From: Escherichia coli
GTDB taxonomy: Bacteria > Pseudomonadota > Gammaproteobacteria > Enterobacterales > Enterobacteriaceae
Strand: one strand, 5' to 3'
DNA length: 64,000 nt
NCBI RefSeq assembly: GCF_044324875.1
Contig: NZ_CP172185.1
Numbering within the stretch: the stretch's first letter is position 1; every line of letters begins with the position of its first letter. The position numbers and the translations under genes are program-made. Positions 12,856-13,053 of the stretch are shown piece after piece. A model generated the notes under the pieces. It searched no databases, was not told where the DNA came from, and saw only the letters and a program-made list of their open reading frames with translations.

Positions 12856-12869
12856 AGGGCGCGCATATT

Positions 12870-13040
12870 AACTTTGTAACGTCATAGAGTCAAAGAAAAA
12901 GGCAGCCTGTGGTTGCCTTTTGCCAATTATTCGCACACATTGCGGGTTACTGCTTTATTTTCGTTCAGTGCTGATAACGAACATCAACCTGCAAAACGAA
13001 GCGCATAGTTTAAAATGGCTATCATCAATACGCTATATCT
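12870..13040 (-). ncRNA. sraB: Candidate SraB-type small RNA in the yceD-yceF divergent intergenic region
   Basis: Positional inference only: in K-12 an sRNA is reported between yceF and yceD; boundaries and strand not verified from sequence. Confidence 0.25.
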
Positions 13041-13053
13041 GATGGAAAAAAAT

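Follow-up and report, generated by a model that had tools for sequence, protein, structure and literature searches.

SraB in the yceD-yceF spacer of Escherichia coli is probably a terminated leader RNA from the distal promoter of yceD-rpmF

What is transcribed from the spacer between yceD and yceF, in which direction, and to which of the two neighbouring genes does the RNA made there belong? In the window, i.e. the whole stretch of 64,000 nucleotides of Escherichia coli DNA (contig NZ_CP172185.1) analysed here, the two genes are divergent, with yceD (173 aa) on the minus strand and yceF on the plus strand. The longest ORF covering yceF in the ORF listing is 13015..13638, and tblastn matched the annotated start at 13054 from YceF residue 1. 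Since yceD ends at 12855 and the annotated yceF start lies at 13054, the spacer 12856..13053 measures exactly 198 bp. RefSeq names on identical E. coli DNA are yceD (23S rRNA accumulation protein) and yceF (7-methyl-GTP pyrophosphatase). ORFs, tblastn and RefSeq annotation thus agree with a preliminary description of this DNA, which had reported a 198-bp gap between the divergent genes and had placed a SraB-type small RNA there by position, giving no strand. The locus is common to the species: a 701-bp query around the interval found it in 5424 of 5426 complete E. coli genomes and was 100% identical to several of them.

The RNA is indeed SraB. An Rfam scan of the whole window matched the SraB model (RF00077) on the minus strand from 13060 to 12892 with 203.8 bits (E 1.8e-42; gathering score, 130 bits), full-length over model positions 1-169 and not truncated. 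In K-12 MG1655, the ncRNA gene sraB (b4418) occupies 1146589..1146757 between yceF and yceD and overlaps the yceF start by 7 nt. Alignment of this reference with the window, a check that the preliminary description had proposed, gave 167 identical positions out of 169 without gaps and in the same yceF-yceD context. The covariance model and the 99% identity to K-12 sraB are two independent tests, and both uphold the positional claim. The two sequences represent the same gene (RF00077; b4418; aliases pke20, psrA4, psrD) in the same spacer and orientation, differing by only two substitutions. The loop of the 5' hairpin carries one of them, and the second affects a base pair in the outer stem of the small hairpin that the model alignment marks as non-standard in the window. 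The gene lies on the minus strand, co-directional with yceD, and this arrangement is found in the window and in all 80 loci from other species that we compared. As annotated, sraB exceeds the spacer by 7 nt, reaching 13060 across the yceF start codon. Its presence in the yceD-yceF gap is correct but ordinary, the gene being already annotated in E. coli K-12. Because there are no indels between the two sequences, K-12 positions convert simply (window = 13060 - (K-12 - 1146589)), and the features of the locus are collected in Table 1.

Several other structured RNAs were matched in the window. The RNase E 5' UTR element rne5 (RF00040; 14921..15257, plus strand, 260.1 bits) is expected upstream of rne. 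Further plus-strand matches above the gathering score were a PyrC leader (36953..37002, 68.7 bits), the sRNAs ES036/CssrF (46110..46152, 45.7 bits) and ES056 (56250..56341, 119.7 bits), and a tRNA (61941..62025, 53.8 bits).

Table 1. Features of the yceD-yceF locus in window coordinates.
Feature	Position	Strand	Basis
yceD	12334..12855	-	ORF
yceF	13054..13638	+	annotated start, tblastn
sraB, long form, 169 nt	12892..13060	-	K-12 annotation and Rfam model
SraB, short form, ~109 nt	12892..13000	-	K-12 start sites mapped onto the window
-10 TAAACT of short sraB (distal yceD-rpmF promoter)	13007..13012	-	6-7 nt upstream of mapped start
5' hairpin of short SraB	12960..13000	-	inside the 56-57-nt insertion; pairing kept
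Small hairpin CGCA-AUGUG-UGCG, then single-stranded AAUAAUUGGC	12932..12944	-	Rfam consensus structure
Intrinsic terminator, hairpin 12921..12897 plus UCUUU tail	12892..12921	-	folding and pair counts
Proximal yceD promoter TTGACT-17-TAATAT	12865..12893	-	promoter scan, 9/12 matches
Proximal yceF -10 TAAAAT	13011..13016	+	hexamer assigned from sequence
Putative distal yceF promoter TTGCCT-17-CACATT, start 12949	12913..12949	+	assigned hexamers weak, 4/6 and 3/6

Published start-site maps place the main 5' end inside the annotated gene. In every dRNA-seq and Cappable-seq data set re-analysed in PMC7967276 (supplement), sraB starts at K-12 1146649, which corresponds to window position 13000 and lies 60 nt downstream of the annotated 5' end. 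The SMRT-Cappable-seq start at K-12 1146648 (supplement of PMC6131387) maps to 13001; the Cappable-seq supplement has no entries for the yceD-yceF locus. A product of ~105 nt was also seen by Argaman et al. (as cited in PMC7967276), and 99 nt are expected for SraB of Salmonella (PMC7967276). These data suggest a main RNA shorter than the annotated 169 nt. The transcript ends used here are all carried over from K-12, and Northern evidence is likewise taken from the literature. TTTTAAACT around the TAAACT element is essentially invariant among 75 distinct sequences from ~40 genera, and the discriminator that follows, ATGCGC, is G+C-rich. A consensus promoter scan of 12700..13300 missed this short-form promoter and called only the proximal yceD promoter. 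Of the -10/-35 pair and the 3' hairpin that the preliminary description had suggested looking for, the conserved -10 TAAACT and a conserved intrinsic terminator at 12921..12892 are present, but no good -35 could be read from the sequence.

The terminator consists of a hairpin followed by UUUUUCUUU, has a folding energy of -11.2 kcal/mol and pairs an A-tract with a U-tract at its base. No terminator was called in a consensus scan of 12700..13300 because an internal stem mismatch breaks the contiguous-stem rule of the scan, and the element was assessed by folding and pair counts instead. Among 41 distinct sequences, 92.4% of the cells are paired and three pairs of the upper stem have changed on both sides. 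The 109-nt SraB folds into three hairpins (-29.5 kcal/mol). Its whole-RNA folding energy is ordinary relative to shuffled sequence (z = -1.79, or -0.98 for 169 nt) and was therefore left out as evidence. The small hairpin and the stretch that follows it, CCGCAATGTGTGCGAAT.ATTGGCAAAAGGC, are nearly invariant across genera, so that the hairpin offers no testable covariation. An outer stem drawn around it in Rfam (guaa/uuau) is unsupported in genera with a short spacer, where most cells are unpaired. As the opposite strand carries a putative yceF promoter at the positions of the invariant parts, the conservation of the small hairpin and the terminator base may partly reflect DNA signals and not RNA function. 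Two small reading frames were also discarded. One, a 13-codon ORF in E. coli and Salmonella, opens at SraB position 55, ahead of the main start site, and its ATG is missing in Citrobacter and Intestinirhabdus. The other, a 31-aa GTG ORF (12984..13079), begins upstream of both mapped SraB 5' ends.

A comparison anchored on YceD, covering the loci of 80 further species (nearly all of them Enterobacteriaceae, and one Erwiniaceae), revealed two states of the spacer. It measures 140-143 bp in most of these loci and 197-198 bp only in those of Escherichia, Salmonella, Citrobacter and Intestinirhabdus; three loci have longer spacers of 232-267 bp. The difference is a 56-57-nt insertion (56 positions in the window, 12950..13005) located directly after TAAACTA, restricted to these four genera, which encodes the 5' hairpin of short SraB. 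Within this insertion the sequence diverges and the pairing is kept, with compensatory changes in 6 of 15 pairs, while the -10 element, the small hairpin and the terminator are kept across genera in the 80 loci. Scores of RF00077 follow the same division among the 19 loci scanned overall: only members of the long-spacer clade score above the gathering value (159-200 bits, with Intestinirhabdus at 105.5), and most short-spacer loci reach 36-92 bits (E 2e-16 to 3e-3). A SraB-type RNA in the short-spacer state would be only ~50 nt long. The short-spacer state, widespread among Enterobacteriaceae, is probably the ancestral one, and the comparison suggests that the hairpin was gained in the lineage of Escherichia, Salmonella and Citrobacter.

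Four loci depart from this division. The three with spacers of 232-267 bp (Enterobacter sp. Cy-643, Enterobacteriaceae RIT693 and Cedecea neteri; L053, L057 and L061) have no CCGCAATGTGTGCGAA hairpin; the proximal yceD promoter, the terminator and AAATGGCAAAAGGC are all retained. In the first of them (L053), the opposite strand also gave weak, sub-threshold Rfam matches to V_AS5 and CssrA. The locus of Escherichia sp. MOD1-EC7003 (L004) has a short spacer and is a mosaic. Compared in windows of 100 nt, its positions ~1400..3519 (yceD, rpmF, plsX) show 93-100% identity to E. coli almost throughout, positions ~1..1400 (yceF) show ~70% identity to E. coli and 86-94% to Pseudocitrobacter, and the breakpoint is the insertion site within the spacer. 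Either recombination or a chimeric assembly would account for it.

On the downstream side, SraB runs directly into a second promoter. The -35 of the proximal yceD promoter (TTGACT, 12893..12888; -10 TAATAT, 12870..12865) overlaps the SraB U-tract, and this promoter lies outside SraB and marks its 3' boundary. K-12 start 1146792 (PMC6131387 supplement) maps to 12857, 2 nt before the yceD ATG, and fits TTGACT-17-TAATAT. With no Shine-Dalgarno sequence present, the mRNA from which yceD is translated appears to be essentially leaderless. The 45 nt from the SraB terminator to the yceD ATG are almost invariant (75 sequences, ~40 genera). The discriminator of the proximal promoter, GCGCGCC, is likewise G+C-rich.

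Long-read data connect the two promoters to the same operon. SMRT-Cappable-seq reads from K-12 1146648 end at 1147708 and span yceD and rpmF (PMC6131387). From this start, 429 reads were counted in M9, 240 of them ending at the 1147708 terminator, and 320 in rich medium, 179 of them ending there; the proximal start at 1146792 gave 681/344 reads in M9 and 595/342 in rich medium, and an operon variant from 1146648 extends to fabH (PMC6131387). Because long reads from 1146648 cover yceD-rpmF, the SraB start is also a distal operon promoter and the SraB terminator is leaky. Approximately 35-40% of the reads from the two mapped yceD-rpmF starts begin at the SraB start, but SMRT-Cappable-seq enriches long transcripts and its read counts are therefore not a ratio of terminated to read-through RNA. 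The terminator located here lies between the yceD coding sequence and the published start shared by both RNAs (K-12 1146648/9). With short and long RNAs arising from one start, SraB looks like the 5' leader of transcripts from the distal yceD-rpmF promoter, cut short by termination, as judged from K-12 data mapped onto the window. Our literature search found no paper treating sraB together with rpmF.

The other neighbour is tied to SraB through the opposite strand. Two K-12 yceF starts have been mapped (PMC7967276, PMC6131387), one at 1146625 (window 13024), 8 nt downstream of the proximal TAAAAT, and one at 1146700 (window 12949). An mRNA from 12949 has a 105-nt 5' UTR that begins with the complement of the first 52 nt of short SraB. 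With the K-12 start at 1146700 mapped, transcription on opposite strands overlaps over 52 nt for the short and 112 nt for the long form of SraB. Given this full complementarity of the 5' 52 nt of SraB to the yceF 5' UTR, yceF is the most probable direct partner of SraB, in cis. Transcription of yceF is barely detectable and SraB is abundant (PMC7967276). At 13007..13016 the TAAACT of sraB/yceD (minus) and the TAAAAT of yceF (plus) stand back to back with a 2-bp overlap; the mapped sraB and yceF starts are 24 bp apart, and the common TTTTAAA core is invariant. The two overlapping promoters are probably mutually exclusive.

Published work links SraB to the RNA chaperone ProQ. SraB was highly enriched in ProQ co-IP from Salmonella, and with E. 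coli ProQ it formed a 1:1 complex in vitro, in which it touched the linker and the C-terminal domain as well as the FinO domain (PMC5393179). Intrinsic terminators are what the FinO domain recognises (PMC7367173), and the type of terminator that SraB has in the window is consistent with ProQ binding. In a Klebsiella hfq mutant, SraB was reported to be down more than 3-fold; ProQ is thus perhaps not its only protein partner, and there may be others. In Salmonella, ppGpp represses SraB more than 4-fold (PMC3963941), which fits a G+C-rich discriminator on a promoter feeding a ribosomal-protein operon. In Salmonella Enteritidis, mutation of sraB reportedly raised the sensitivity to egg albumen (Jiang 2010, as cited in PMC7967276 and PMC3963941). 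For E. coli, we found neither a target nor a phenotype of SraB in the searched literature.

Jointly, the evidence is best explained by sraB being a minus-strand gene for a terminated yceD-rpmF leader that is a ligand of ProQ and has yceF as its probable cis partner, a reading in which we place considerable confidence. RNA polymerase would start mainly near 13000, at a promoter with TAAACT and a weak -35, and proceed toward yceD. Many transcripts would stop at the terminator (12921..12897, with the U-tract extending to 12892), freeing the ~109-nt RNA with its three hairpins, and the remaining ones would pass it to become yceD-rpmF(-plsX-fabH) mRNA. The freed SraB would be bound by ProQ, its terminator with paired A-tract and U-tract suiting the FinO domain, and might act in cis on yceF through the antisense 5' UTR.

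Other explanations put the function elsewhere. SraB could be an independent, trans-acting and ProQ-dependent sRNA that pairs with unlinked mRNAs via the single-stranded GAAUAAUUGGCAAAA, with read-through into yceD being mere leakage. Its annotation as a stand-alone ncRNA, its strength as a ProQ ligand (PMC5393179), the near invariance across genera of the single-stranded stretch between small hairpin and terminator, and the egg-albumen sensitivity of the S. Enteritidis mutant (Jiang 2010, as cited) all speak in this direction. However, the searched literature reports no trans target, the invariant stretch overlaps the putative yceF promoter on the opposite strand, and the share of reads from the two yceD-rpmF starts that begin at the SraB start is above what would be incidental. 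We therefore consider a trans-acting role possible but doubtful. The same overlap of signals could be taken further, with SraB as a by-product of a terminator that insulates the strong proximal yceD promoter and with its conservation being that of overlapping divergent promoter DNA. The U-tract abuts or overlaps the proximal -35, the best-conserved blocks are -10 or -35 candidates on either strand, and the sraB and yceF -10 elements overlap back to back, as this explanation would have it. It is nevertheless improbable: compensatory changes in the clade-specific hairpin and the upper terminator stem indicate selection on RNA structure, SraB accumulates and is bound specifically by ProQ (PMC5393179, PMC7967276), and a terminator as leaky as that of SraB would be a poor insulator.

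The choice of 5' end matters as well, for the functional species might instead be the 169-nt form from 13060, acting as an antisense RNA over the ribosome-binding site and start codon of yceF. Both the annotation and the Rfam model are 169 nt long, the Shine-Dalgarno region and ATG of yceF find their complement in the first 60 nt, a -10-like TAAAAT stands at 13071..13066, and, according to PMC7967276, the RNA was first detected in late stationary phase. Yet this TAAAAT is only 5 nt upstream of 13060 and comes with a poor -35 at best, none being assignable, and it is not kept outside Escherichia and Intestinirhabdus, neither in Salmonella and Citrobacter nor in the short-spacer genera. Moreover, all dRNA-seq and Cappable-seq sets of PMC7967276 start 60 nt further downstream, and the 99 nt expected in Salmonella do not accommodate the longer RNA. 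We give little credence to the 169-nt form as the functional species; it is perhaps a minor RNA found in Escherichia alone.

A more far-reaching version of the leader is conceivable, in which the conserved element is a tunable attenuator for yceD-rpmF(-plsX-fab) that also silences yceF via the 52-nt antisense overlap. Its inputs may be ProQ, a product of the operon (L32 or YceD), or growth rate via the ppGpp-sensitive promoter. If true, SraB would be the by-product of a two-way switch linking ribosome and lipid synthesis to a nucleotide-cleansing enzyme. We regard this version as speculative and unlikely. Inspection by eye for an antiterminator, in which the insertion hairpin would pair with the terminator's 5' arm, found only the 5-nt match GGUUG, and this candidate was rejected. 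As a finding, the presence of sraB carries little weight, given that the K-12 annotation, Rfam and the work on ProQ already include the gene. What is gained, to a modest extent, is its anatomy, obtained by combining published start-site and long-read data with a comparison of 80 species, and the revised anatomy may aid the search for the function of an abundant ProQ ligand.

Set against known classes, SraB resembles three of them in part. Like the 5' UTR sRNAs generated by premature termination, a class surveyed in E. coli through mapping of 3' ends (PMC7815308), it shares its start with an mRNA, has a terminator before the coding sequence and yields both RNAs. Unlike them, it has no evident switch between termination and read-through, and the gene that follows has its own stronger promoter right behind the terminator; the main text of PMC7815308 mentions neither sraB nor yceD or rpmF. 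As in ribosomal-protein leaders, a conserved and structured leader precedes an operon with a ribosomal-protein gene (rpmF), and it is repressed by ppGpp in Salmonella. SraB nonetheless matched none of the ribosomal-protein leader families in the Rfam scan, it has no known ribosomal-protein binder, and most transcripts of the operon start downstream of it. The third class is that of SibA-E, cis-antisense sRNAs that are ligands of ProQ. SibB is named in this context in PMC7367173. SraB is likewise highly structured and bound by ProQ, with a terminator base of paired A-tract and U-tract and full complementarity to an RNA from the opposite strand; unlike in SibA-E, however, that opposite-strand partner is the 5' UTR of the housekeeping gene yceF and not a toxin mRNA.
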